A DNA stretch of 64,000 nt from Candidatus Babelota bacterium. Lineage in GTDB: Bacteria; Babelota; Babeliae; Babelales; UBA12411. The notes beneath the pieces are model-generated. The model saw only the letters and a program-made list of their open reading frames with translations, did not search any database and was not told where the DNA came from. Made by a program: the position numbers and the translations under genes. Below are positions 5,378 through 53,302 of this stretch, piece after piece. Position 1 is the first letter of the stretch, and each line of letters begins with the position of its first letter. The stretch is from NCBI GenBank assembly GCA_003511165.1, contig DOJW01000008.1:106010-170009 (forward strand), read 5' to 3'.

Positions 5378-5569
5378 AAAACTTGTAAATTCCAACTATT
5401 TTTAATCAAAAATCAAAACTCTGCATACTTTTCAAACTCGATCTGATAACATTTCTAAATATCGCTTTACGGATCGGAATTTGGATTTCCGATTTGTAAG
5501 CATAAATAAAGTTAAATTTAATTAATAATACAGGCTTTAATATTTGGATATTTGTTTGTACGCAGTGCC

Positions 5570-5595
5570 ATTGTCACCCTCGCATGGGCGACAAT
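5570..5595. repeat. isolated GC-rich hairpin element (ATTGTCACCC-tcgcat-GGGCGACAAT) in AT-rich spacer
   Basis: 10-bp stem with one mismatch. Its composition contrasts sharply with the surroundings. Similar in style to the GC-rich elements at 50462-50510, 51073-51106 and 51318-51351. Confidence 0.5.
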
Positions 5596-5710
5596 ACCGT
5601 ATCAATCATAGATAGAAATTTGTAACATGCTTTATTCAAAAATTAAAGCTAAAAATAATTAAATTTAACTCACACTAAAGTAAGTAAAACTATAAAATTT
5701 AGGAGATTTT

Positions 5711-35591: not shown

Positions 35592-35964
35592 TGGTGGAGG
35601 CGATGGGAATTGAACCCATGTCCGAAACAATATGTAAACTAAGCACTACATGTTTAGCCTTCGAATATACTACTGATTCATCTCAAAGGCAAAAAATTAA
35701 ATCACAGCCAGTTTAGTGATATGATCTAGCTACTAAACCAAAAAATCTTGCTAGAAAATTCTATCTGATTAATACAAGTTAGATTAGCTGATAGCCACGC
35801 CGCACTAACAGGAGTCAAGCTAAATAACTGAGTTAATTAAGCTTGAGCTGCAGAATATTGTCCTGCACTTATTGTTTTTGCTTTAGTTCTTTAACGAGTT
35901 CCCAAAACAAAACTCGACATGCTCTCAAGTCGACACGTTATCCCGTCGAAACCGTGACGCCCCC
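35592..35964 (-). ncRNA. ssrA: transfer-messenger RNA (tmRNA)
   Basis: Minus-strand read: 5' GGGGGCGTCACGGTTTCGACGGGATAACG ... 3' GGACATGGGTTCAATTCCCATCGCCTCCACCA. The acceptor stem has a G3:U pair and there is a T-arm. Internal ORF GCA AAA ACA ATA AGT GCA GGA CAA TAT TCT GCA GCT CAA GCT TAA. Confidence 0.93.
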
Positions 35965-41352: not shown

Positions 41353-41921
41353 AATTTTGCAAAATCTATAAAATCAATAACCCTAAATAGTATTTCCACC
41401 TTTAAAAAACCACTATCCATGCGTTTGATCACCACTTGTTTAACTTTCAAAAAAGAACTTTTACTCGCTAGATAATCAAAAAAGGAAAACAAACTATCAA
41501 ATGAACCTTCCGCTTTTAATGAGAATAATTTTTTTGAATAAATTTTATCTTTAGCTTTTGTTGGCAGATTTATTTCTTCTAAGTCTAAAAATCTTAAATT
41601 TTTCTTTTCCAAATTTTCCAAAATTACTTTTATATGTTTTTCGACTTTCCACTTTTGGTTTACATTCGAAATTAAAAATTCATTCTCTTTATCCAGCTTT
41701 TGCAGCTCATCAAGTTTTGATTGTAACTGATTGCGTAAAGCTTCACCCTGCTGCAAAGAGTTATTTAGATTTGAAATATTTGAATTTATAGAATTGAAAA
41801 AGAAAATTTTAAAAATTAGAAATAAAATAACAATGACAAAAATTGGCATAAAAATTTTTGATTTCAACGATAAATCGCGTGCTAAAAAAATTAATTTATT
41901 TTCCCTAAAAATTATCGCCAC
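41349..41921 (-). CDS. PilO/PilN-like bitopic pilus assembly protein
   Basis: Single TM (IFMPIFVIVILFLIFKIFFF) followed by a coiled coil. Operon position before the PilP-like gene and secretin. GTG start; overlaps the next gene by 4 nt. Confidence 0.4.
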   Translation of the reverse strand: MAIIFRENKLIFLARDLSLKSKIFMPIFVIVILFLIFKIFFFNSINSNISNLNNSLQQGEALRNQLQSKLDELQKLDKENEFLISNVNQKWKVEKHIKVILENLEKKNLRFLDLEEINLPTKAKDKIYSKKLFSLKAEGSFDSLFSFFDYLASKSSFLKVKQVVIKRMDSGFLKVEILFRVIDFIDFAKL

Positions 41922-42160
41922 AAAAAATCCCGCTAAATTTTTATTATGAAATTGCGCAGTTGATTTTAAGAAATCAAAAAGTTGAAAGTAAAGGATAAAA
42001 ATAAAAAATCGGTAAAACTTTATTTAAAAGCTTTATCTCAAAAACTCAAAAAAGCTCCTAAACTATTATTATTATTATTATTTTCTTGATTTTTTCATCC
42101 CATTTTTTCTAGAAAAGATAAGGTAGTTAACTTTTAATTTTTAAAAAAGGAAAGACATAA

Positions 42161-45100
42161 ATGAAAGTTTCAAAAATTATAGTTTTAGCTTTGTTTATCG
42201 GAAGCATTTTGGGAAATATACGAATTAAATGCGGGGAAGAAGAAGAAGCAATATCCCGTGCAATTGCAAATATACAAAAAAACTACGACGACGAAATATT
42301 AAAACCATATGAACACAATTTAGAAGTTAATCTTAAAGCGATTAAAGAAATAGAAGGCAATATTAAACAAACTAAAAGCAATCTTGAAAAATCACAATCA
42401 CAAGATTCAATTGAATATCATAAATCACAACTGGTTGATCATGAAAAACGTCTTGAAAACGCAATAAAAATATACCTCGATACCATAGAAATTTTTTTAA
42501 AAAACGCAGAAAGTAGAAAAAATCTAATACTAGACGAAATAGCATATCATATCCAAAGAATAGCTAACCTTACACTACGCAAAGAATTAGACCTAAAACT
42601 AAAATTAGAAACAGATCAAATCACAGAAACAATAAGTAAAAAAAGAGCTCAACTTGAGGAAGAGATTAGACTCATACAAGAAGAAGCTAAACGCCTTAAA
42701 GAAGAAATTAAAATTGCAATCGAAAAAAAACAAAAAGAAGATGAACTCGCAAAAGAAAAAGCTAAAATTGAAGCTGAAGCTAAACAAAAAGAAGATGAAA
42801 CTACCTTGGGAAAACAAAAAAATATATTTAGAGATAATATACGCCTTCATTATTTTAAAATCGCTTGTGAAATACTTTCGGAAATAGAAAGTAAAAACCA
42901 AACTAATGATTTTTTTAAATCTATTTGGGACCCTTCTTTTGACATCAACTCAAAAGATAAAGATGAAAACACAATATTAATTGTTGCTGCGATGCATGGC
43001 CTTGATAAATTCGTTACATTTTTACTCGAAAATGGTGCTGATGCAAATGTAAAAGGAGAATATGAGAGAACGGTCTTCTTCTACCTTAACACTAAAAATA
43101 TTGCAATCATTTTGATTGATTGGTTGAAAAAAAATGGTTTAAATCCTGCTGAATATTTGAATGACCGAGACCTCGATGGAAATACGCCTTTAATGGTTGC
43201 AGCAATGCATAGTGCAACTGAGTCACTAAAAATTTTACTAGATAATGGCGCAAATATTAACGCAAGGAATAACGCTGGCCGCTCTTTTCTTCATTTTATT
43301 TATGCAAATCCAAAAGGTATTAGTTATTGGATCGAAATAGCCAAGACTACTGAGCTAACACCAACATTACCAACAATTGATGAATACTATCGAACCCCTC
43401 TATACTGCGCTTTAGAAGAAGGAGAAGATGTAACACAATTCACAAAAGAATTAGAAAAACAAAATGCTCCACTGTTTGGCACCAATAGCGAAGGTCAACC
43501 GGTCTTCCCATATGCTACAAATAATCCTGCTATTTTGGTTAAAGCATTAACCGAAGCTGTGCAAAAACAAAGTAGCATGGACGAGGAATCTCAGCAGCGT
43601 ATTTTGGGTGAAATTCTACTACCTTCAATTTTATTTCAACACCAAGTCTGTCTACCCCTTATAATAAAAGATCCAAAATTACTGCAAAATACTAAAAAAC
43701 TATTTAAAGAATTTGCACCTAAAAGAGTTGATGATTTTTTTGAAAAAACTATTAACGATGCTAAAAAGAATATTCCTCAAGTTCCTTTGCATCATTTAGC
43801 TATATTTATAGATAAAGATGATGAATGGGATGTCACTAATAAAGCTATGAGCGTAAAACTTACATCAATGCTTAAACAAGCAGGCACACCATGTCTCGTT
43901 ATAGGTGGCCATGTACTAAAACATGCGGCCACAAACCTGCATAAAGAAAAATTCGATTTTGAAAAAAACTTTTATTTTTTTACAATCAATGATGATAAAT
44001 TTTTTCCTGTTCTTGTTATTCCTAAAAATTATGCCGCAAGAAATGTAAGCGATAAATCTCTAATAAATTTGTCAAATTTATCTTGGCTAAGATCTTTAGG
44101 TTTTAACCCTAAAAATTTGGTTCATAAAAAATTTGCCAATATCGACTTCAGTAAAGAGCAAATAATTCCAACTAAAGAATTTGGGGAAAAAACTATTAAT
44201 CTGGTTAAAAATGTTTTGACTAATGTTAAAGAACGTGGACGAATTGTATATGTAAGCGGACATGGATATAGTTATATTCGACAAAAAATAGATACTATTT
44301 ATGAGCGTGCGGTAAACTTACCTTTAAACGCATTTTTTGATTTAATTAGAGAGTTAGAAGAAAAAGGCACATTGTTCACACACGTTTTAACATGTTACAT
44401 GGGGGGTGACAATTTATCAGCTTTGGAAAAAGTTATGATAAATGATTTTTACAATACAACGCTTGCAACTATGCTGGATACCCATCAAAAAACAAAAAGC
44501 ACTACTTCCGAAACTCATAATAAAATGTTTTTATCTGTTGCATCAACAGCAGATGTCTCAACAAGCGGAGACGTTGATACAAATTTATTCTTCCCAGCTG
44601 TCGATACGTTTTTCAACTTATTACGATCTGACGCAGTAAAAGATATGATGCCAAATCTATTTACTTGGCTTACAAGAATGTTTAGAACCGTTGGCGTTCG
44701 TAGAGATATTGTGAATTATCCACAAATCAGAATACCTGGTAATCAAACATCATTTTATCTTGCAGATATCCATGGAGACTTACAAATAATCAATAGAATG
44801 AACACCATGCAAGATCGCTTCACAATCGCACAAAAAGGGGATAAAAAAGTAGTTAAAATCAATAAACCAAAAGATATTGTCGTTACAAACAAAAATGTTT
44901 TGGTAACGTACATCGACCATGTCGAAAACAAAGTAATAATCGAAGATAAGGTACCTGTAATACTTGCCATGGGAACTAATGAATATTTCAGAACATTCAG
45001 TGAAATATTTGTAGACATACCTGAAATGGATTTTTTTAATTTTGCTTACAACAGTTTCTACCCTGCAGATTTTGGCGAAGAAATGGGTCATCGCGAAACT

Positions 45101-45781
45101 TATTTAATGAAAAAACTCACTTTTGCAAATGAAGATATTTTTGAAGATATTGATGTTCCACAAGAAATTGCTTCACAAAAACCACAGACTTTATACAACG
45201 TTTATCTCAAAAGAGGATTAGAAGAAAAAGCTGCTGTTATTTTTTCACTCGGACAAAATCCTACTGACGATGTTTTTGAGATAAATGAAGATAAAGTTGT
45301 AAGAAAACTCGAAGGCGAAGAGAAAGAACTTTATTTAGCTAGAGTTTCGGCAATGCAGGCAGAAGTTGGTCACTACTTTAGTCCACTAGAAGAAAAGCTT
45401 CTAAAAAATAGCGCTCTATTCTTACAAGAAAATAAACAAGATTTGGCAAAAGTATTTAAAACCGCATTAGTAAAAAGTGTTGTTTTGAGTGGAAGAGATT
45501 GCGATAAATTATTGTTATCATATTTAAAACTTCTTGATACAACTACAGATGAAGAAATATTAACTTCGCTCAAAGAACTTCTTCCTTTTTTGATGCAAAA
45601 TTACAAAGAAATTCCATCATGGACACTGCTTGAAAAAATGAAATTTGTAATTTTAAGTTTCAAAGAACTAAAAAAGGAAACAGTCGAAACTTTCGAAAAA
45701 ATAATAGATAAACTTTTTGAATTCGATGAGAAAAATAAAAAAGCATTAAAAGATCTACTAAAGAAAATTACAGTTAAATAA
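42161..45781 (+). CDS. giant secreted protein A: signal peptide, Glu/Lys coiled coil, ankyrin repeats, clan CD-like His/Cys domain, helical C-terminus
   Basis: 1206 aa. MKVSKIIVLALFIGSILG; ANK blocks DENTILIVAAMHGLDKFVTFLLENGADANV and DGNTPLMVAAMHSATESLKILLDNGANINA; RIVYVSGHGYSY (His701, nt 44261-44263) and FTHVLTCYMGG (Cys745, nt 44393-44395). Confidence 0.85.
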   Translation: MKVSKIIVLALFIGSILGNIRIKCGEEEEAISRAIANIQKNYDDEILKPYEHNLEVNLKAIKEIEGNIKQTKSNLEKSQSQDSIEYHKSQLVDHEKRLENAIKIYLDTIEIFLKNAESRKNLILDEIAYHIQRIANLTLRKELDLKLKLETDQITETISKKRAQLEEEIRLIQEEAKRLKEEIKIAIEKKQKEDELAKEKAKIEAEAKQKEDETTLGKQKNIFRDNIRLHYFKIACEILSEIESKNQTNDFFKSIWDPSFDINSKDKDENTILIVAAMHGLDKFVTFLLENGADANVKGEYERTVFFYLNTKNIAIILIDWLKKNGLNPAEYLNDRDLDGNTPLMVAAMHSATESLKILLDNGANINARNNAGRSFLHFIYANPKGISYWIEIAKTTELTPTLPTIDEYYRTPLYCALEEGEDVTQFTKELEKQNAPLFGTNSEGQPVFPYATNNPAILVKALTEAVQKQSSMDEESQQRILGEILLPSILFQHQVCLPLIIKDPKLLQNTKKLFKEFAPKRVDDFFEKTINDAKKNIPQVPLHHLAIFIDKDDEWDVTNKAMSVKLTSMLKQAGTPCLVIGGHVLKHAATNLHKEKFDFEKNFYFFTINDDKFFPVLVIPKNYAARNVSDKSLINLSNLSWLRSLGFNPKNLVHKKFANIDFSKEQIIPTKEFGEKTINLVKNVLTNVKERGRIVYVSGHGYSYIRQKIDTIYERAVNLPLNAFFDLIRELEEKGTLFTHVLTCYMGGDNLSALEKVMINDFYNTTLATMLDTHQKTKSTTSETHNKMFLSVASTADVSTSGDVDTNLFFPAVDTFFNLLRSDAVKDMMPNLFTWLTRMFRTVGVRRDIVNYPQIRIPGNQTSFYLADIHGDLQIINRMNTMQDRFTIAQKGDKKVVKINKPKDIVVTNKNVLVTYIDHVENKVIIEDKVPVILAMGTNEYFRTFSEIFVDIPEMDFFNFAYNSFYPADFGEEMGHRETYLMKKLTFANEDIFEDIDVPQEIASQKPQTLYNVYLKRGLEEKAAVIFSLGQNPTDDVFEINEDKVVRKLEGEEKELYLARVSAMQAEVGHYFSPLEEKLLKNSALFLQENKQDLAKVFKTALVKSVVLSGRDCDKLLLSYLKLLDTTTDEEILTSLKELLPFLMQNYKEIPSWTLLEKMKFVILSFKELKKETVETFEKIIDKLFEFDEKNKKALKDLLKKITVK

Positions 45782-45788
45782 AGATTAA

Positions 45789-45825
45789 AGTGGTATGAAT
45801 TTTTTTAAATTCATACCACTTTTTA
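45789..45825 (+). terminator. rho-independent terminator of giant gene A
   Basis: Stem AGTGGTATGAAT 45789-45800 / ATTCATACCACT 45809-45820, followed by tttt. Confidence 0.8.
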
Positions 45826-45879
45826 TAAGTTCATAAATACTAATTAAATATAAAAACTTCTGCTCTCTAAAATACCACA

Positions 45880-45946
45880 TTTTTGATTTCAACGATAAAT
45901 CGCGTGCTAAAAAGATTAACTTATTTTCTCTAAAAATTGTCGCCAC
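45880..45946 (-). pseudogene. duplicated 5' fragment (about 22 codons) of the PilO-like gene, created by the tandem duplication
   Basis: The minus strand reads GTG GCG ACA ATT TTT AGA GAA AAT AAG TTA ATC TTT TTA GCA CGC GAT TTA TCG TTG AAA TCA AAA, which is M-ATIFRENKLIFLARDLSLKSK. The intact gene reads MAIIFRENKLIFLARDLSLKSK. Confidence 0.85.
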
Positions 45947-48900
45947 AAAATGTCCCACTAAATTTTTATTATGAAATTGCGCAGTTGATTTTAAGAAATT
46001 AAAAAGTTGAAAGTAAAGGATAAAAATAAAAAATCGGTAAAACTTTCTTTTAAAGCTTTACCTTTAAAACTCAAAAAAGCTCCTAAACTATTATTATTAT
46101 TATTATTATTTTCTTGATTTTTTCATCCCATTTTTTCTAGAAAAGATAAGGTAGTTAACTTTTAATTTTTTAAAAAGGAAAAACATAAATGAAACTTGCA
46201 AAAATTATAGTTTTAGCTTTGTTTATCGGATGTATTTTGGGAAATATACAAAGTGCGAATGGTGATATTGAAAAGCAAATAAATCAAAGGGTTGAACAAA
46301 TTCAAAAAGATTACGAAGCTGCTCTAAAACACAATGAAGAATATTTAAAACGCTATGATGAACCAATAAAACGATATGAAAATGAAATAAAACAAATAAA
46401 AATCAAACTTGAAAAAGTTAAATCAGAATTTGGATCTCTTTGGGGCGAAGAATATAAATCGCAATTAATTTACGCTGAAAAACATCTCGAAGATACAAAG
46501 ACTGATCGCATAAAAACAAAAGAACTACTATTACAACAAGCAAAAGCTCATAAAAAATCCGCCGAAAAAGAATTAAAAGAAGATATTGAAAGACATGCTC
46601 GCGGAATACAATTCGAAGAATTTAGATTAAGAGAACAAGCAGAAGATGCCGCTCGAATAGAAGCAATAAGAAAAGAACAAGCAAAACTTGAAGAAGAAAG
46701 AAAACTCCGAGAAGAAGCTAGACTCAAAGAAGAAGCAAAAAAACTAGAAAAAGAAAAAGAAGAAAAACAAAATCCATTTAGAACAGAAATAAAAAAGCAC
46801 AACTTTGAAGGAGCGTTTGAAATTTTGAAAGAGATAGATCCTAAAAATCAAACTAATGACTTTTTCAAATCTGTTTGGGATGGTTCTGTTGATATTAACG
46901 CAAAAGACGAAGAAGGACAAACAGCTTTAGGATTTACAGTAAGTTATGGAAATAGCAATTTACTTTCTTTTTTACTCGATAATGGCGCAGATATTAATGC
47001 GAAAGATGGTTACGACAACACTGTATTTTTTCACATTGGAAATAAAAACATTGCAGAAATTTTAATCAATTGGTTGAAAAAAAATGGTTTAAACCCTGCT
47101 GAATATTTAAATGCAAAAAATCTCAATGGAGATACTCCATTTATCAATACTGTTGCAAGGAAACAAAATTCTGATCTTTTAATATATTTATTAGAAAATG
47201 GAGCAAGTATTGATACAAGAAACAACAATGGTCAAACAATCCTGCATTTTGCTAATGACAATCCAAATCAAATTGAATTTTGGACAAAAGTTACACAAAG
47301 CGCGCAAATAGCCAATATCTTATCGTTCATAGATGAATACTCAAGAACACCGCTTTATACCGCACTAGAAGAAGATGAACCTGTTAAAAAAAATGCACCA
47401 AAATTTGCAGCCGCACTTGAAAAACAAAACGCACCACTGTTTGGAACTAATAATGAAGGTCAACTAGTCTTTCCATATGCTACAAATAATCCTGCTATTT
47501 TAGTTAAAGCATTAACCGAAGCGATGCAAAAGAAAAGTAGCATGGACGAAGAATCTCAGCAGCGTATTTTGGGTGAAATTCTACTACCTTCAATTTTATT
47601 TCAACACCAAGCCTGTCTACCTCTTATAATGAAAGATGCACAGCTACTGAAAAAGACTCGCGAATTATTCAGAGAATTTGAACCCAAAAGAGTTAATGAT
47701 TTTTTTGAAAAAACTATTAACGATGCTAAAAAGAATATTCCTCAAGTTCCTTTGCATCATTTAGCTATTTTCATTGACCAAGATGGCGAATCACATGGAC
47801 CAAGAGCAGTAAGTTTGAATCTTGTAAGAATTCTTCAAAATAAAAAAGAGCCTTGTCTTATCTTCGGTAAACATTTATTATTTAATGCTGACTTTATAAG
47901 AAAAGCAGATAAAATCGATTTGGATTTAGAAAACAGTTTTCATTTTTTCATTGTTAATAATAATCAATCCGCTGTGCTTATCATCCCAAAAGAATATATA
48001 AAAAGTTTTATCCCTTCTACAATAAAATTATCAGATATTGCTATTCTTAGATGGCTAGGGTTTAACCCGCAAAGCTTAACTCACAAAAAATTTTCAAAAA
48101 TAGATTTAAAGACAAAAAGCGATATCTCTGCTGATGAATTTGGCAAACAAACTGTCGAATCGATAAAAAATGTTTTGACCAACGTCAAAGAGCGTGGACG
48201 GATTGTTCAATTAGAAGGTCATGGCTGGAGTTATTTAAGGCAAAGAAAAAACCCTACAAATGCTATCGCTGTAAATCTTTCTCTACCTTACTTTTTAGAT
48301 TTGATTAGAGATCTAGAAGAAAAAGGCACACTGTTCACATATGTTCTAACTTGCTACATGGGAGGCGATAATTTATCCGCTTTGGAAAGGGTTATGATCA
48401 ATGATTTTTATAATACTGAACTTGCTAAGATGCTGAATGCTCACCAAAAAACAAAAAGTGCTACTCCCGAAACTCACAATAAAATGTTTTTATCTGTTGC
48501 ATCAACTGCAGATATATCAACAAGTGGAATGGTAGATACCAATTTATTTTTCCCAGCTGTCGATACGTTTTTCAATTTATTAAAATCTGACGCAGCAAAA
48601 GATATGACGACCAATTTATTTGCCTGGATTACAAGAATGTTTAGAACCGTCGGAGTTTTAAGAGATATAGTCAATTATCCACAAATTAGAATCCCTGGCA
48701 ATCAAACATCATTTTACCTTGCAGATATCCATGGAGACTTACAAATAATCAATAGAGTAAACAGTATGCAAGATCGCTTCATAATAGTGCAAGAAGGAGA
48801 TAGAAAAGTAGTTAAAGTCAATAAGCCAAAAGATATTGTCGTTGCAAACAAAAATGTTTTGGTAACATACATAGATCATGTCGAAAACAAAGTAATAATC

Positions 48901-49743
48901 GAAGAAAAAGTACCGGTAATACTCGCCATGGGAACTAATGAATATTTCAGAACATTCAGTGAAATATTTGTAGACATACCACAAATGGATTTCTTTAATT
49001 TTGCATACAACAGTTTTTACAAAAATCCTTTTGCGGAAGAAATGGGCCATCGCGAAACTTATTTAATGAAAAAACTCACTTTTGCAAATGAAGATATTTT
49101 TGAAGATATTGATGTCCCACAAGAAATCGCATCACAAAAAGCTCAGACTTTGTACAACGTTTATCTCAAAAGAGGATTAGAAGAAAAAGCTGCTGTTATT
49201 TTTTCACTCGGACAAAATCCTACTGACGATGTTTTTGAGATAAATGAAGATAAAGTTGTAAGAAAACTCGAAGGCGAAGAGAAAGAACTTTATTTAGCTA
49301 GAGTTTCGGCAATGCAGGCAGAAGTTGGTCACTACTTTAGTCCACTAGAAGAAAAGCTTCTAAAAAATAGCGCTCTATTCTTACAAGAAAATAAACAAGA
49401 TTTGGCAAAAGTATTTAAAACCGCATTAGTAAAAAGTGTTGTTTTGAGTGGAAGAGATTGCGATAAATTATTGCAGTCATATTTAAAATTTCTTGATACA
49501 GCTACAGATGAAGAAACATTAAATACGCTCAAAGAACTTCTTCCATTTTTGATGCGAAATTACAAAGAGATTCCTGCATGGACACTACTTGAAAAAATGA
49601 AATTTGTAATTTTAAGCTTCAAAGAACTAAAAAAGGGAACTGTCGAAACTTTCGAAAAAATAATAGATAAACTTTTTGAATTCGATGAGAAAAATAAAAA
49701 AACATTAAAAGATCTTCTTAAAAAAATCACAATATCAAAGTAA
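45881..49743. repeat. tandem segmental duplication, unit 2 (through the stop of giant gene B)
   Basis: Collinear with 41853-45781. The 3' flank of unit 1 is not found after 49743 but reappears at 50861-50972. Confidence 0.9.
46189..49743 (+). CDS. giant secreted protein B, paralog of A
   Basis: 1184 aa. MKLAKIIVLALFIGCILG; ANK blocks; RIVQLEGHGWSY (His678, nt 48220-48222) and FTYVLTCYMGG (Cys722, nt 48352-48354). The C-terminal third is nearly identical to A. Confidence 0.85.
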   Translation: MKLAKIIVLALFIGCILGNIQSANGDIEKQINQRVEQIQKDYEAALKHNEEYLKRYDEPIKRYENEIKQIKIKLEKVKSEFGSLWGEEYKSQLIYAEKHLEDTKTDRIKTKELLLQQAKAHKKSAEKELKEDIERHARGIQFEEFRLREQAEDAARIEAIRKEQAKLEEERKLREEARLKEEAKKLEKEKEEKQNPFRTEIKKHNFEGAFEILKEIDPKNQTNDFFKSVWDGSVDINAKDEEGQTALGFTVSYGNSNLLSFLLDNGADINAKDGYDNTVFFHIGNKNIAEILINWLKKNGLNPAEYLNAKNLNGDTPFINTVARKQNSDLLIYLLENGASIDTRNNNGQTILHFANDNPNQIEFWTKVTQSAQIANILSFIDEYSRTPLYTALEEDEPVKKNAPKFAAALEKQNAPLFGTNNEGQLVFPYATNNPAILVKALTEAMQKKSSMDEESQQRILGEILLPSILFQHQACLPLIMKDAQLLKKTRELFREFEPKRVNDFFEKTINDAKKNIPQVPLHHLAIFIDQDGESHGPRAVSLNLVRILQNKKEPCLIFGKHLLFNADFIRKADKIDLDLENSFHFFIVNNNQSAVLIIPKEYIKSFIPSTIKLSDIAILRWLGFNPQSLTHKKFSKIDLKTKSDISADEFGKQTVESIKNVLTNVKERGRIVQLEGHGWSYLRQRKNPTNAIAVNLSLPYFLDLIRDLEEKGTLFTYVLTCYMGGDNLSALERVMINDFYNTELAKMLNAHQKTKSATPETHNKMFLSVASTADISTSGMVDTNLFFPAVDTFFNLLKSDAAKDMTTNLFAWITRMFRTVGVLRDIVNYPQIRIPGNQTSFYLADIHGDLQIINRVNSMQDRFIIVQEGDRKVVKVNKPKDIVVANKNVLVTYIDHVENKVIIEEKVPVILAMGTNEYFRTFSEIFVDIPQMDFFNFAYNSFYKNPFAEEMGHRETYLMKKLTFANEDIFEDIDVPQEIASQKAQTLYNVYLKRGLEEKAAVIFSLGQNPTDDVFEINEDKVVRKLEGEEKELYLARVSAMQAEVGHYFSPLEEKLLKNSALFLQENKQDLAKVFKTALVKSVVLSGRDCDKLLQSYLKFLDTATDEETLNTLKELLPFLMRNYKEIPAWTLLEKMKFVILSFKELKKGTVETFEKIIDKLFEFDEKNKKTLKDLLKKITISK

Positions 49744-49794
49744 TATACTTACAAAGCGTCAATTATTAAAAAATATTTAAAGAAAGGTCTTAGT

Positions 49795-50343
49795 ATGAAT
49801 AAGTTAAATAAAATACTGTTTACAATGGTTGCAACGCTAATGTTTTCAAGTTATCCAATCAGCGCTCAAAGACAAATAACAACTATAGTAAAAGTAATAA
49901 ATAAGACACAATATGAAGCTCACATCTCATGTCTATGTGGAGATGGTTCTGTAGAAAAAGTAGTTTTACCACAAAGTGAAATGTCTGTGTATGGTAGATA
50001 TGATATATCTATGAAGTTCGACATGCCTATATTTCAGATTATTGGTGTTTCACGATGGGTACCAGTATCAAACCGCTCCATATATTCGTATTTATCTCTT
50101 GATAAAAATGGTGAAACAATTGAAGAAAATTTAATTAAAGAAACTCGAAAGATCATAGCGCTTGATGAAGGAAGAGGCAAATTGCTTACTGATTGGAACG
50201 AATGTTTATATATATCAAAAGCTGCCATCTTGATTATTGATTGTGATGGAAGTTTACATATAAAGGAATATGCAGTACTTGATGATCAAAAAGATCTTGA
50301 AGGACTATCCCAAGCTCAGACAATTTTACACGGAATAGATTGA
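49795..50343 (+). CDS. small secreted hypothetical protein S1 (paralog of 51537..52019)
   Basis: Signal MNKLNKILFTMVATLMFSSYPISA; ITTIVKVINKTQYEAHIS...; ends TILHGID. The 25-nt leader is identical to that of S2. Confidence 0.7.
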   Translation: MNKLNKILFTMVATLMFSSYPISAQRQITTIVKVINKTQYEAHISCLCGDGSVEKVVLPQSEMSVYGRYDISMKFDMPIFQIIGVSRWVPVSNRSIYSYLSLDKNGETIEENLIKETRKIIALDEGRGKLLTDWNECLYISKAAILIIDCDGSLHIKEYAVLDDQKDLEGLSQAQTILHGID

Positions 50344-50362
50344 AATTTCTCTAAAAATAAAA

Positions 50363-50394
50363 AGGCGGTAAAGATTTTAAAATCTTTACCGCCT
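50363..50394. terminator. 32-bp perfect palindrome hairpin after S1 (bidirectional terminator candidate)
   Basis: AGGCGGTAAAGATTTT|AAAATCTTTACCGCCT. Confidence 0.6.
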
Positions 50395-50461
50395 AATACT
50401 TAGAATAGACCTCTTTTGAAACCTTTAGCTATCTTAGTCAGACTCTTGAATTTTTACTTCC

Positions 50462-50510
50462 GTTCGCCCTGAGCGAAGCCATTCTATGGCGTAGTCGAAT
50501 GGGTGCGAAC
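50462..50510. repeat. GC-rich compound hairpin element downstream of the GIY-YIG gene
   Basis: Outer stem GTTCGCCC / GGGTGCGAAC and inner stem GCCAT-tct-ATGGC. A GC-rich island in AT-rich spacer. Confidence 0.5.
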
Positions 50511-50563
50511 TTCTTTATTTTAATATCAGGGATTTATAATTTTGAATTGATTCATGCTTAAAC

Positions 50564-50839
50564 CTACTTTTTATCCCTGTTTGCTAATGCTTGCCATCCC
50601 CCTGAAATAAGTAATTCCTTTTTTACTCGAGTCCATTTTTTCATTTGTCTTTCTGCCATAAGCGCTTCATATCTAGTAGCAAAGGCTTGTGTAAAGACTA
50701 TCTGAATTGGAAGTCTTGAACTTGTATACCCACTATACTTTCTAAATTTATGTTCCGAAATTCTTTTTTCAAGATTATCAGTATGCCCTATGTAGTAGGA
50801 ATTATCATCACATTTGAGTATGTAAACATAAAATGACAA
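50564..50839 (-). CDS. GIY-YIG nuclease superfamily protein (UPF0213/YhbQ-like), apparent TTG start
   Basis: (M)SFYVYILKCDDNSYYIGHTDNLEKRISEH (GIY...YIG motif), ...RQMKKWTRVKKELLI. AGAAGG RBS 7 nt before the TTG. Confidence 0.85.
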   Translation of the reverse strand: MSFYVYILKCDDNSYYIGHTDNLEKRISEHKFRKYSGYTSSRLPIQIVFTQAFATRYEALMAERQMKKWTRVKKELLISGGWQALANRDKK

Positions 50840-50844
50840 CGTAT

Positions 50845-50862
50845 AACCTTCTTAAGAAGGTT
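50845..50862. repeat. 18-bp perfect palindrome AACCTTCTTAAGAAGGTT abutting the GIY-YIG start
   Basis: Read directly. It contains the putative RBS of the GIY-YIG gene and lies at the junction with the orphan flank. Confidence 0.8.
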
Positions 50863-50972
50863 ACAGTCAAATAAAGATTAAAAGGGGTATGAATTTTTTG
50901 GAATTCATACCCCTTTTTGTAAGTTCATAAATGCTAATTAAATATAAAAACTTCGGCTCTCTAAAATACCAC
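50861..50972. repeat. orphan copy of the 3' end plus terminator flank of giant gene A (aligns with 45768-45878)
   Basis: ttacagtcaaataaagattaaaaggggtatgaattttttggaattcatacccctttttgtaagttcataaatgctaattaaatataaaaacttcggctctctaaaataccac compared with the A flank. The terminator hairpin at 50884-50918 keeps pairing through compensatory changes. Confidence 0.85.
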
Positions 50973-51072
50973 CTCCACGGCACTTATCATTACCCACATC
51001 TTTTACTAATCTAAACTTTTATGATTTTATATGAAAATAAACATTTTTATGTATGTTAAATATACATCACCT

Positions 51073-51351
51073 CCTGTCGTCCTTGCGTAAGCGAGGATCC
51101 AGTTTTCATGCATTTATCAAAAGTAGTATCAAAATGAAAAATTATTACGTATATATTCTATGCTCTAAAACAAATGGAACTTTATATATTGGTGTGACAA
51201 ATAATATTGCAAGACGAATTTATGAGCACAAAAACAAGTTAAACATTGGTGCCGTGAGTAGAAGTTACAATTAATCGAAGCCTCAAATCCAAAAATGGAA
51301 AGAAATTAATTGAAATTAAAACTGGATCCTCGCTTACGCAAGGATGACAGG
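51073..51351. mobile_element. 279-bp element bounded by 34-bp terminal inverted repeats and carrying a decayed GIY-YIG gene (MITE-like)
   Basis: Left IR 51073-51106 cctgtcgtccttgcgtaagcgaggatccagtttt. Right IR 51318-51351 aaaactggatcctcgcttacgcaaggatgacagg. The reverse complements differ at one position. Confidence 0.7.
51134..51309 (+). pseudogene. GIY-YIG nuclease pseudogene (internal deletion or frameshift)
   Basis: MKNYYVYILCSKTNGTLYIGVTNNIARRIYEHKNK then a premature stop at 51272-51274. A -1 frame continues LIEASNPK..., resembling the family C-terminus (LIE..NP.W). The central ~40 aa of the family are missing. Confidence 0.7.
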
Positions 51352-51386
51352 AAAAGTTGTTTTGCGGTTTTTTAAATTTAATTTAA

Positions 51387-51506
51387 CGTCGAACTCACGT
51401 TAAATTACATCTTAAAGAATGTGAATGGCGTTGGAATAAAACTTCTGATAAACTTAATCTCGAATTATGGAAAATTGTATTAAAATTTAATCGTCTGATG
51501 GTCTAA
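51387..51506 (+). mobile_element. C-terminal fragment of an IS1595-family-like transposase (remnant)
   Basis: Open frame RRTHVKLHLKECEWRWNKTSDKLNLELWKIVLKFNRLMV*. (F/L)HLKECE(F/W)R(F/W)N is, from memory, characteristic of the IS1595/ISXO2-like transposase C-terminus. No upstream body. Confidence 0.5.
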
Positions 51507-51536
51507 AGCCAAAAAATATTTAAAGAAAGGTCTTAT

Positions 51537-52019
51537 ATGAATAAGCTTAAAAAAATGCTGCTTATATTTATTACTATTTTAGGATTTGCAGTTATTACAA
51601 TTAATGTTGAGGGTAAAATAACAAAAATAGTAAGCGTAATTAATAAAACAGCTGCTCCTGTTCATATCTCACGTTCAATATATGATGGTTCCATAGAAAA
51701 AGTAGTTCCGGCTTTCGAGGAAATGCTTTTGGGTGATGATATGTATATGGATAACGACTTCAATAGTTCTCGACCGCATTATATGACAGTTTCACGAATG
51801 GTCTTAGATCAAATTTGTACAACAATGATATATGCTAATGGAAGCGGTAGTATAATTGAAAATAATAAAAATAGCATAGGACATTTTCATAACGACAGAT
51901 TTAGATTGATTATTCACCGTGATGGAAAGTTGGAGGCAGAAGAGCCTTATGACATTTATAATGACAAATATCTCGAAAGATTGCGTGACGCTGATACAAT
52001 TTTACACGGAATACACTAA
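51537..52019 (+). CDS. small secreted hypothetical protein S2 (paralog of 49795..50343)
   Basis: Signal MNKLKKMLLIFITILGFAVITINVEG; ITKIVSVINKTAAPVHIS...; ends TILHGIH. Confidence 0.7.
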   Translation: MNKLKKMLLIFITILGFAVITINVEGKITKIVSVINKTAAPVHISRSIYDGSIEKVVPAFEEMLLGDDMYMDNDFNSSRPHYMTVSRMVLDQICTTMIYANGSGSIIENNKNSIGHFHNDRFRLIIHRDGKLEAEEPYDIYNDKYLERLRDADTILHGIH

Positions 52020-52042: not shown

Positions 52043-52070
52043 GAGATAAATCTTTATAAAGATTTATCTC
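52043..52070. terminator. 28-bp perfect palindrome hairpin between convergent genes
   Basis: GAGATAAATCTTTA|TAAAGATTTATCTC. Confidence 0.6.
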
Positions 52071-52099: not shown

Positions 52100-53302
52100 T
52101 TAATTCACTTTAAATTGAGATTCCACAAAAAATTGTGGGCCATGCGCTATAAAATTATCACACGCAAATTTATAAAGTTCTTTTTGTTTCAAATGGTTTC
52201 TAACATGTGGATTTGATGTAATAACCACAGCCTTTGGAACATTTATAGTTTCCCAAATAGTCTCAAAATAATCCCTTGAAATTACAAGATCATTTCGGCT
52301 ATAAAACATCAAAACATTTGTATCTTTTATATTAGGTAAATAAGTAGTAACTCGTATATCATCATTCAATTTATTATCCGAAAGCTTGCTAACTTGCCAC
52401 ATCAAGAACATTTGTACCGGCCAACGTTGTAAAACAGCAGTTATGCAATATTCAGCACTTGTTATTCCCCATTTTGAACCGCCATGTTGTGGATCAAAAA
52501 ATAAAGCCATGTTATTCTTTCCATTATCAATAATAGATTTGAGCGATAACCAGCAACCATCCAAAATAAGGTCGGAAAACAATTTTTCGCCTTCCTTATT
52601 TTTCAAGCCTTGAGCTTTGGCCATAAGCATTGCACCATAACACACACCAAGACCTATAACCTTTTTATATTGCTTTTTATCTTTTTCTAATTTTTTTTCT
52701 TTCACTGCTTTGACAACAGCAAAAATATCTTCTTCTTCTTTAAAACCAAATCTTGATACAGATAAATCTACTTCTAAGAATTTCTTAAAAAAGTTGTTTA
52801 AACGTCCTTGGTCTTTACTCTTATTCATCAAATCGCCATGGCCTCTAAAGTTCATCAAAACAATGTCACAATCTCGATTGTTCCAAAACATTTCAACAAA
52901 TGGGGCCATCGTTTCTTTCGCATTGGTAAATCCAGGAGCAACAATAATCACGTTATCACCACCACGAGCAATGTAAGAATAAGAAATATCAACGCCATCA
53001 ATTGTTTTTGTATAACATTCTTCAGCTTTAACATTTTCTTTCAAAATTTTCTTAACAGCTTTTGTATCTTTTATTATTTGTGCATCAAAAAGTTTCGATT
53101 CATTCAAATAACCATTCTTTTTTTTAGCAGCTTCTTTTATAGCTTCCGATATTTCAAAACCGGTTTCATTAAAAGAAGAGACTACATATGTAAAATCTTT
53201 AGAATTTTTAGATTCAGCAGAATTACCATACCAATCTTTCTCTGCTAAAAGGTTAGGCAAAGAAAATGATAAAAAGAGTAATAAATTGATTTTTTTAAAC
53301 AT
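52100..53302 (-). CDS. secreted alpha/beta-fold hydrolase with Gly-x-Cys-x-Gly nucleophile elbow
   Basis: Signal MFKKINLLLFLSFSLPNLLA; VIIVAPGFTN; VLMNFRGHG; KKVIGLGVCYGAMLMA. ATG 53302 is preferred over TTG 53341. Confidence 0.65.
   Translation of the reverse strand: MFKKINLLLFLSFSLPNLLAEKDWYGNSAESKNSKDFTYVVSSFNETGFEISEAIKEAAKKKNGYLNESKLFDAQIIKDTKAVKKILKENVKAEECYTKTIDGVDISYSYIARGGDNVIIVAPGFTNAKETMAPFVEMFWNNRDCDIVLMNFRGHGDLMNKSKDQGRLNNFFKKFLEVDLSVSRFGFKEEEDIFAVVKAVKEKKLEKDKKQYKKVIGLGVCYGAMLMAKAQGLKNKEGEKLFSDLILDGCWLSLKSIIDNGKNNMALFFDPQHGGSKWGITSAEYCITAVLQRWPVQMFLMWQVSKLSDNKLNDDIRVTTYLPNIKDTNVLMFYSRNDLVISRDYFETIWETINVPKAVVITSNPHVRNHLKQKELYKFACDNFIAHGPQFFVESQFKVN

Follow-up and report, generated by a model that had tools for sequence, protein, structure and literature searches.

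A patchwork of old insertions beside an ankyrin gene pair in Candidatus Dependentiae, with a probable decayed Ssn-type nuclease unit and a putative hairpin partner for a small GIY-YIG nuclease

A pair of ankyrin genes in the genome of a member of Candidatus Dependentiae (~31% GC) is followed by a junction region of ~2.3 kb, beyond which lies a conserved hydrolase-DeoC-ATPase block. We examined this junction within a 64-kb stretch of DNA, here called the window, whose numbering is used throughout. The junction holds two paralogous genes, S1 and S2; two small GIY-YIG nuclease genes, one intact and one broken; several hairpins; a displaced piece of ankyrin gene flank; and a remnant of an insertion sequence (IS) of the IS1595 family. 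An initial annotation had listed nine features here. All nine are present where it placed them, and the palindrome among them measures 20 bp, not 18 bp. The features are as follows.

41854-45878, plus strand: tandem unit 1, made up of an upstream region, ankyrin gene A and its 3′ terminator flank (direct repeats D1-D8, junction alignment and Pfam ankyrin repeats)
45879-49743, plus strand: the part of tandem unit 2 that ends with the stop codon of ankyrin gene B; homology to gene A stops at ~49733
49714-49733, plus strand: left copy of an imperfect 20-nucleotide (nt) direct repeat, CTTCTTAAAAAAATCACAAT (alignment of the A and B ends, and sequence)
49734-50847, no strand: inserted block of 1,114 bp with S1 and the intact GIY-YIG gene, which are convergent and share a terminator; it fills the gap from where the B/A homology ends to where the orphan flank begins
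49795-50343, plus strand: S1, a secreted-type orphan protein of 182 amino acids (aa) with a signal-peptide-like N terminus, paralogue of S2
50363-50394, minus strand: terminator hairpin with a 14-bp stem, probably bidirectional (z = -7.2; T-run on the minus strand)
50460-50512, plus strand: compound three-tier hairpin, CCGTTCG-CCCTGAG-(inner hairpin)-TCGAA-TGGG-TGCGAAC, the downstream, antisense-oriented repeat of the intact GIY-YIG gene
50564-50839, minus strand: intact nuclease gene with a single GIY-YIG domain, UPF0213 (YhbQ/YazA-like) clade; 91 aa, with TTG as start codon (Pfam, PDB and hidden Markov models)
50844-50863, no strand: perfect 20-bp palindrome, TAACCTTCTTAAGAAGGTTA (sequence and fold)
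50848-50972, plus strand: displaced original 3′ end of unit 2, with the last ~8 codons and stop (to 50874), a terminator hairpin (50880-50917) and flank up to the duplication boundary at 50972
51072-51109, plus strand: left NTS/SRM-type hairpin arm with TGTC tag, stem GTCCTTGC/GCGAGGAT, GTAA loop and CCAG tail; the layout matches CGTC-1 REP and NTS
51134-51306, plus strand: Ssn-type GIY-YIG nuclease pseudogene (Pfam, frame-wise alignment to a hidden Markov model, clade models)
51315-51352, minus strand: right NTS/SRM-type hairpin arm, inverted, with TGTC tag, stem ATCCTTGC/GCGAGGAT, GTAA loop and CCAG tail
51387-51506, plus strand: relic of an IS1595-family transposase C terminus (HLKECEWRWN...) up to its stop codon (tblastn with full-length transposases)
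51537-52019, plus strand: S2, 160 aa, paralogue of S1, with its own terminator at 52043-52070
52100-53302, minus strand: alpha/beta-hydrolase-like gene, the first of the block syntenic with the nearest relative

Gene A (42161-45781, 1206 aa) and gene B (46189-49743, 1184 aa) both encode ankyrin-repeat proteins according to Pfam, and the proteins are 66% identical. Each gene lies in a copy of a duplicated unit of 4,025 bp. The two copies are joined head to tail and cleanly, with AAAATACCAC followed directly by ATTTTTGATTTC, and the second unit closes with the same AAAATACCAC at 50972. Alignment across the duplication junction revealed no element and no repeat there, so the suggestion that mobile elements had driven this neighbouring duplication is not supported. 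Identity between A and B is a mosaic: it reaches 94-97% in the upstream region and in the last ~700 nt up to the breakpoint, and ~72-73% in mid-gene. This pattern would point to gene conversion at the ends, or would be consistent with diversifying selection in the centre. Since gene conversion at the 3′ ends is likely, dating from divergence is unreliable.

The 3′ flank that should follow gene B is found downstream of S1 and the intact GIY-YIG gene. The orphan flank at 50861-50972 matches 45768-45878, the flank of gene A, with 92% identity over 112 nt (E = 9e-36). It terminates at exactly the same base as unit 1 and contains the terminator hairpin at 50880-50917 (fold z = -6.9). The similarity extends to the left as far as ~50848, taking in the gene's last eight codons (CTTCTTAAGAAGGTTACAGTCAAATAA). 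The same 20 nt, diverged, still end gene B at 49714-49733, so that an imperfect direct repeat encloses the 1,114 bp in between. Its right copy, 50848-50867, matches the left copy at 15 of 20 positions, and both copies have CTTCTTAA at the site where gene A has CTACTAAA. The palindrome at 50844-50863 overlaps the remnant of the gene's 3′ end and provides the AAGAAGG ribosome-binding site of the GIY-YIG gene. That a block of S1 plus GIY-YIG gene had parted gene B from its original 3′ flank, as proposed from the sequence earlier, is thus borne out: the flank now stands at 50848/50861-50972, ~1.1 kb downstream of the gene.

The simplest history is that the duplication came first and that the S1/GIY-YIG block entered copy B afterwards. 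The order could also be reversed, with the arrangement of gene, S1, GIY-YIG gene and flank being ancestral and copy A having lost 1.1 kb by recombination between the 20-nt repeats. Two observations lean this way. The divergence between the two 20-nt repeats, 5 positions in 20 (25%), exceeds the 8% of the flank copies, an odd result if the repeats postdate the duplication, and S1 and S2 are anciently diverged (34% identity). However, a model with an ancestral block costs one extra event compared with insertion, and the 3′ end of gene A is colinear with its own flank and carries no scar. The extra divergence of the repeats can be explained by small counts together with selection on the last codons of B and on the ribosome-binding site of the GIY-YIG gene. 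We consider loss from copy A unlikely and retain duplication followed by insertion.

Beyond the displaced flank lies a 281-bp unit, 51072-51352, previously described as a decayed GIY-YIG element bounded by terminal inverted repeats (TIRs). Its two arms are 38 nt long and 95% complementary, with 0 matches in shuffles, and the 64-kb window has no third copy of them. Each arm folds alone as a GUAA-capped hairpin. This is the structure of a known class of dispersed repetitive extragenic palindromes (REPs), the CGTC-tagged REPs that include dRS3 and RPE-6, in which a CGTC or TGTC tag is followed by an 8-9-bp stem starting with AT, a 4-5-nt loop and a CCA tail (PMC3733652). The right arm, which reads TGTC, ATCCTTGC, GTAA, GCGAGGAT and CCAG in this order, fits the CGTC-1 description exactly; the left arm has G for the first A. 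The window arms share with CGTC-1 REPs (PMC3733652) the TGTC/CGTC tag, the AT-initial stem of 8 bp, the 4-nt loop, the CCA tail and the head-to-head pairing. Those repeats are high-copy and dispersed, whereas the window has one pair only, flanking a nuclease gene. Di Nocera et al. 2013 gave no dedicated enzyme for the class (PMC3733652).

The gene enclosed by the arms is broken. The truncated GIY-YIG gene is recognized by Pfam with E = 2e-10. Frame-wise alignment to a hidden Markov model (HMM) gives 68 bits for model positions 1-45 and, in another frame, 23 bits for positions 36-89. The pseudogene therefore consists of codons 1 to ~34, a ~100-nt deletion with a frameshift, and codons ~65-90 with an internal TAG. 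The nucleotides missing between the EHKNKL and EREKQLK codons (model positions ~35-64) include the codon for the catalytic Glu, and the TAG stands in place of a conserved Trp. Given these two lesions, the unit is presumably an inert relic. To place it among GIY-YIG proteins, we compared it with HMMs of two clades. The first 39 residues score 67 bits with an Ssn-like HMM and 32 bits with an HMM of the UPF0213 type. The Ssn-like HMM was built from 61 homologues of 85-105 aa out of the fetched Ssn-like loci and serves as a proxy for SsnA and cd10448.

SsnA is a 94-aa single-domain GIY-YIG protein (cd10448) that binds the NTS hairpin CGTCATTCCCGCGMAVGCGGGAATCYRG as single-stranded DNA and cuts a few nt 5′ of it; binding and cleavage have been shown for the Neisseria and Wolbachia proteins (PMC11893778). 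In the survey of Chenal et al. 2025, 71% of Ssn homologues had motifs nearby and 42% had them on both sides (PMC11893778). We looked for the same arrangement among homologues of the window gene. A short-query protein search with the pseudogene returned 20 truncated proteins, which were used solely as seeds for a metagenome scan; the scan seeded with the truncated protein gave 80 loci encoding homologues of ~95 aa. At these loci, the gene typically lies between inverted hairpins of the form (C/T)GTCAT-stem-loop-stem-CCAG, whose stems vary by compensatory changes. The upstream arm stops 2-20 nt short of the start codon, and 0-10 nt separate the stop codon from the downstream arm. At the 65 testable homologous loci, we counted GTC-tagged hairpins by orientation. 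The expected orientation, sense upstream and antisense downstream, was seen within 100 nt upstream at 46 of 65 loci, downstream at 38 and on both sides at 32. In the control orientation the same loci gave 3, 14 and 2, respectively, and shuffled flanks gave ~2 upstream and ~3 downstream. These fractions agree with the published 71% and 42%.

The window unit shares with the Ssn/NTS-SRM system (PMC11893778) a single-domain GIY-YIG gene of ~94 aa bracketed by inverted hairpins of 20-50 nt, of the form (C/T)GTC, then an AT-stem-loop-stem-AT, then CYRG, with arms just before the start and just after the stop, as at the 65 homologous loci. It differs in that the gene is a pseudogene, the stem is CCTTGC/GCGAGG with a GTAA loop, the literal SRM pattern fails, the hairpin is not amplified (two arms only in 64 kb), and the host belongs to Dependentiae. 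There is a further likeness to the RAYT/REP "REPtrons" (IS200/IS605-like TnpA-REP), where a single nuclease gene also lies between inverted copies of its presumed target hairpin and where dispersed copies occur in some genomes. The enzyme here is a GIY-YIG nuclease, not an HUH tyrosine transposase, and the hairpin tags differ.

Could the 281-bp unit instead be a decayed transposon with TIRs, either IS-like or of the kind of a miniature inverted-repeat transposable element, in a region of repeated classical transposition that also triggered the ankyrin duplication? Its inverted termini of 38 nt and 95% identity would suit this, and the authors of the Ssn study themselves remark that an IS has the very same layout as NTS-ssnA-NTS (PMC11893778). 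Moreover, IS5-type and IS110 transposase genes adjoin homologues of the intact GIY-YIG gene. However, the unit contains no transposase; the gene it encloses is a nuclease domain of 94 aa. The octamers outside the arms, ACATCACC and AAAGTTGT, are unrelated, so there is no target-site duplication. The window has no further copy of the unit, the arms are individually hairpins of the dispersed REP class and not IS ends, and the duplication junction lacks an element. We therefore regard a transposon of this kind as quite unlikely. The 281 bp are better described as a pseudogenised Ssn-type nuclease gene between NTS/SRM hairpins, and not as an IS.

A genuine IS has nevertheless left a trace next to this unit. 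We compared two full-length IS1595 transposases from annotated plasmids with the six frames of the window. The single best match of both queries is 51390-51485, with 47% identity over their last 32 aa, including the LKECEWRFN motif (E = 1.5e-5 and 8e-5). The transposase tail seen in the initial annotation is thus real, and it keeps only the last 32-39 codons; weak similarity may reach left to 51353, abutting the hairpin arm. The tail ends with a stop at 51506, 30 nt before S2. It shares with the IS1595 family (ISEc75-like) the C-terminal LKECEWRFN motif and the tail to the stop codon. It differs in being a relic of ~35 codons with no DDE domain, no inverted repeats and no 8-bp direct repeat, so it is not a complete IS. 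Neither Pfam nor NCBIfam matched it. The proposed search for full-length copies of the IS and of the TIR element was carried out within the window and found no other IS1595 fragment and no further arm. Of the repeated mobile-element activity claimed for this junction, then, the accumulated foreign pieces and the IS1595 relic stand, and the "TIR element" does not stand as an IS-like transposon, having neither a transposase nor a target-site duplication.

The second GIY-YIG gene, in the inserted block, is intact and belongs to a sister family. Its product matches Pfam PF01541 with E = 1e-16 (61 bits against a cut-off of 22.6). It resembles, over the full length, the PDB entries 1ZG2 (E = 2e-15) and 1YWL (E = 1e-12), each a "UPF0213 protein." With an HMM of its own family it scores 154 bits, compared with 61 bits for the Ssn-like HMM, which is a clean separation. 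Homologues are found at 60-82% identity; the adjacent hydrolase has none above 40%. We also considered a group I intron or a homing endonuclease of the I-TevI type for the GIY-YIG genes and rejected it: TIGR01453 gave 18.7 and 24.7 bits against a cut-off of 56, both proteins are single-domain (91 and ~94 aa), and Rfam found no intron RNA.

The hairpin at 50460-50512, 52 nt downstream of this gene, is ~47% GC in a genome of 31% GC. It is made of an outer stem, CCGTTCG/CGAACGG, a middle stem, CCC/GGG, conserved unpaired GAG and TCGAA, and a variable inner hairpin. The compound motif can be written CCGTTCG-CCCTGAG...TCGAAGGG-CGAACGG. The compound hairpin occurs within ~100 nt of the gene at 9 of 9 distinct metagenomic homologue loci (among L101-L117), sense when upstream and antisense when downstream, and both inverted arms are present at 5 of the 9. 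In an alignment of 21 sequences, pairing in the middle helix reaches 95%. Each of the three pairs in this helix varies on both sides (CCC/GGG, TGG/CCA, TCC/GGA, TAC/GTA), and none of 500 shuffles equals the covariation score; slid controls are far lower. This compensatory covariation supports the structure. The strict motif is present 17 times in the homologue loci (29.7 kb) and once in the 64-kb window, beside the intact gene, and it is absent from 376 kb of other fetched loci. In the cultured Sphingomonas parapaucimobilis, a simpler form, CCGTTCGCCCTGAGCGAAGTCGAAGGGC, is dispersed over at least 23 places, and its best match overlaps the 3′ end of that organism's UPF0213-type GIY-YIG gene. 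The copies in S. parapaucimobilis YK209 span eight records of one strain (L118, H24-H31).

At the inserted-block edge, the window lacks the upstream arm that is usual in homologues, and the UPF0213-type unit is thus cut off there. Taken together, the co-occurrence and covariation suggest that the hairpin at 50460-50512 is the cognate flanking repeat of the intact gene and not a separate feature. By analogy with Ssn, the UPF0213-type nuclease would recognise its own conserved hairpin, probably as single-stranded DNA. As a side observation, transposase genes of the IS5 type (DDE_Tnp_4/HTH_Tnp_4; L104 and L105) and of IS110 (L106-L108) lie directly 3′ of GIY-YIG homologues. At L104 and L105, ~946 nt separate the gene from its downstream hairpin arm, which lies past the IS, as if the IS had inserted between gene and hairpin.

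A broader proposal follows, which we put forward tentatively, at odds somewhat short of even. UPF0213/YhbQ-type nucleases may constitute a second, undescribed Ssn-like system, with a three-tier hairpin (CCGTTCG-CCCTGAG-(variable inner hairpin)-TCGAA-GGG-CGAACGG) of its own on both sides of every gene and evolving together with it. In certain genomes, that of Sphingomonas among them, this hairpin would have spread into a dispersed repeat. The intact gene resembles the known UPF0213/YhbQ-YazA proteins (1ZG2, 1YWL) over its full length, and the difference lies in the flanking three-tier hairpin, as the literature searched gives this family no cognate hairpin. Neither sequence nor keyword searches of that literature found a description of the pairing, and Rfam has no matching family.

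We also weighed whether the GC-rich hairpins of both nuclease genes are ordinary transcription terminators or RNA stability elements, with no role as nuclease recognition sites. They are stable and sit just beyond open reading frames, and REPs are known to act as RNA elements. However, the hairpins also occur upstream of genes, in inverted orientation. They bear conserved unpaired tags (TGTC..CCAG in one class, GAG..TCGAA in the other) and have no T-runs; a separate canonical terminator follows at 50363-50394. Furthermore, the Ssn family has been shown to bind and cleave single-stranded DNA sequence-specifically and not to bind RNA (PMC11893778). We hold a purely terminator- or RNA-based role to be very unlikely, and we keep to the view that the hairpins would serve as recognition sites of the nucleases.

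How old are these events? The initial annotation spoke of recent activity and suggested a comparison across related genomes. The nearest available relative (L121/L122) shares a 503-aa gene, the ATPase (53%), DeoC (73%) and the hydrolase (40%); past the hydrolase it has unrelated genes that are absent from the window. Synteny thus stops exactly at the 3′ end of the hydrolase gene, which puts the right edge of the variable region at 52100. Since this relative is without the organisation seen here, the arrangement is not an ancient conserved one. The comparison goes that far and no further: with the closest hydrolase homologue only 40% identical, the relative is too distant to bear on recency. 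Public contigs are closer. An identical S1 gene is found on 13 of them, and the 6 of these 13 that were compared as DNA match the window with 100% identity along as much as 11 kb. These 6 derive from several groundwater and other metagenomes, and all of them start ~450 nt 5′ of S1, within the A/B repeat, where assembly breaks. Recent activity is not supported by any of this: both the Ssn gene and the IS have decayed, there is 8% divergence between the flank copies, and the public contigs compared are invariant. With identical public copies and two dead elements, the events at this junction are old and fixed, and nothing links the elements to the neighbouring tandem duplication.

These data suggest the following history. 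First, the ankyrin unit of 4,025 bp would have been duplicated cleanly in tandem. A 1,114-bp block would then have entered the last codons of copy B, shifting its terminator flank downstream; the duplication and the insertion themselves we regard as demonstrated. The block carries S1 and the convergent, intact UPF0213-type nuclease gene with its family-specific three-tier hairpin. About 100 bp past the displaced flank stands the dead Ssn-type unit of hairpin, gene and inverted hairpin. This relic abuts the last 32-39 codons of the IS1595 transposase, the remainder of the IS having been deleted. We conclude that the 2.3-kb junction is a genuine patchwork of old insertions, a lineage-specific patch produced by several old, independent events, and we put the probability of this whole explanation, from duplication to IS1595 stub, at about 0.75.

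Several points weigh against it. The 20-nt repeat that brackets the block is just 75% identical and may be partly coincidental in AT-rich sequence. Membership of the pseudogene in the Ssn clade is suggested by the HMM that stands proxy for SsnA and cd10448. Neither arm in the window matches the literal SRM pattern (HGTCWYN(0-2)YYVSBRHN(0-5)WNVSBRGN(0-2)RNCYNB), which also misses roughly two in three of the hairpin-flanked loci. In other phyla, the 20-mer at the core of the arm turns up at 12 sites that have no GIY-YIG gene within ~4 kb. The link between UPF0213-type genes and their hairpin comes from sequences at nine metagenomic loci and three plasmid-collection records only, and of these three relatives one has the simple form, one a looser variant and one (L120) none. 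The SRM pattern matches 21 upstream and 26 downstream flanks of 70 homologous loci, and it is therefore narrower than the class. The 12 sites show that the hairpins can also occur where the gene does not, which is what a dispersed REP class would lead one to expect. As none of these sites of the TIR 20-mer is near a GIY-YIG open reading frame, we gave up the notion that hairpin and gene are invariably paired.

Other observations concern these hairpins. GTC-tagged hairpins are not in excess in the 64-kb window, where 10 were observed and 9.6 were found in shuffles. Metagenome-assembled genomes of Alphaproteobacteria (L007, L010, L012-L014, L017) have intergenic clusters of differing GTCAT-tagged hairpins, for example gtcattcccgcgcaagcgggaatc and gtcatccttgggcttgacccgaggatc, with no GIY-YIG gene in the fetched ±4 kb. 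The Rfam model FtrB (Francisella small RNA B, RF02748) gave weak matches below threshold (24-30 bits, where the gathering score is 66) that coincide with or adjoin NTS/SRM arms in three independent loci: the window at 51301-51371 (minus strand), L053 at 1912-1974 and L035 at 1941-1998. This suggests that the FtrB model contains a hairpin of the NTS/SRM type. An isolated intergenic GC-rich hairpin at 5560-5600 of the window, CATTGTCACCCTCGCATGGGCGACAATAC, holds TGTC and lacks the NTS layout.

S1 and S2 remain to be described. The two proteins are 34% identical, and their genes end in the same 18 coding nt. Ahead of the ATG, S1 (49768-49792) and S2 (51511-51535) have an identical stretch of 25 nt, AAAAAATATTTAAAGAAAGGTCTTA, and this shared leader may be a conserved translation or regulatory signal or the product of local gene conversion. 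S1 has no match in Pfam or NCBIfam. A search of 1.84 billion representative proteins returned one weak relative only, P0219 (544 aa), which matches in six stretches and appears to be a tandem array of the C-terminal module of S1. Being essentially without relatives, S1 belongs to a lineage-specific family. The T-run of the terminator at 50363-50394 lies on the minus strand, so that this hairpin mainly terminates the GIY-YIG gene; S1 (plus) and the GIY-YIG gene (minus) are thus a convergent pair sharing one terminator. Scans of viral contigs with S1, the intact GIY-YIG gene and the compound hairpin gave no matches. At gathering thresholds, the sole Rfam match in the window is a transfer-messenger RNA gene at 35592-35964 (minus strand; tag peptide AGQYSAAQA). 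At permissive E-values, in the region and five related loci, nothing approached a family threshold.

For this genome, the outcome is mainly a matter of tidying up: a confusing junction is now explained as a set of old, fixed events, and the suggestion of active transposons behind the ankyrin gene duplication is removed. The Ssn/NTS system is extended to a pseudogenised copy in Dependentiae, and the look of such a decayed unit should be useful for annotation. The locus itself is ordinary; the association of UPF0213-type genes with a hairpin is the part worth pursuing. If it is true, "small GIY-YIG nuclease plus cognate hairpin repeat" would be a general class parallel to RAYT/REP. A large uncharacterised protein family and a very common GC-rich repeat would both gain a candidate function, and thousands of genes annotated as "GIY-YIG nuclease family protein" would have a likely substrate. 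These proteins would then be a second set of sequence-specific single-strand nucleases, with a recognition structure that is different and longer.

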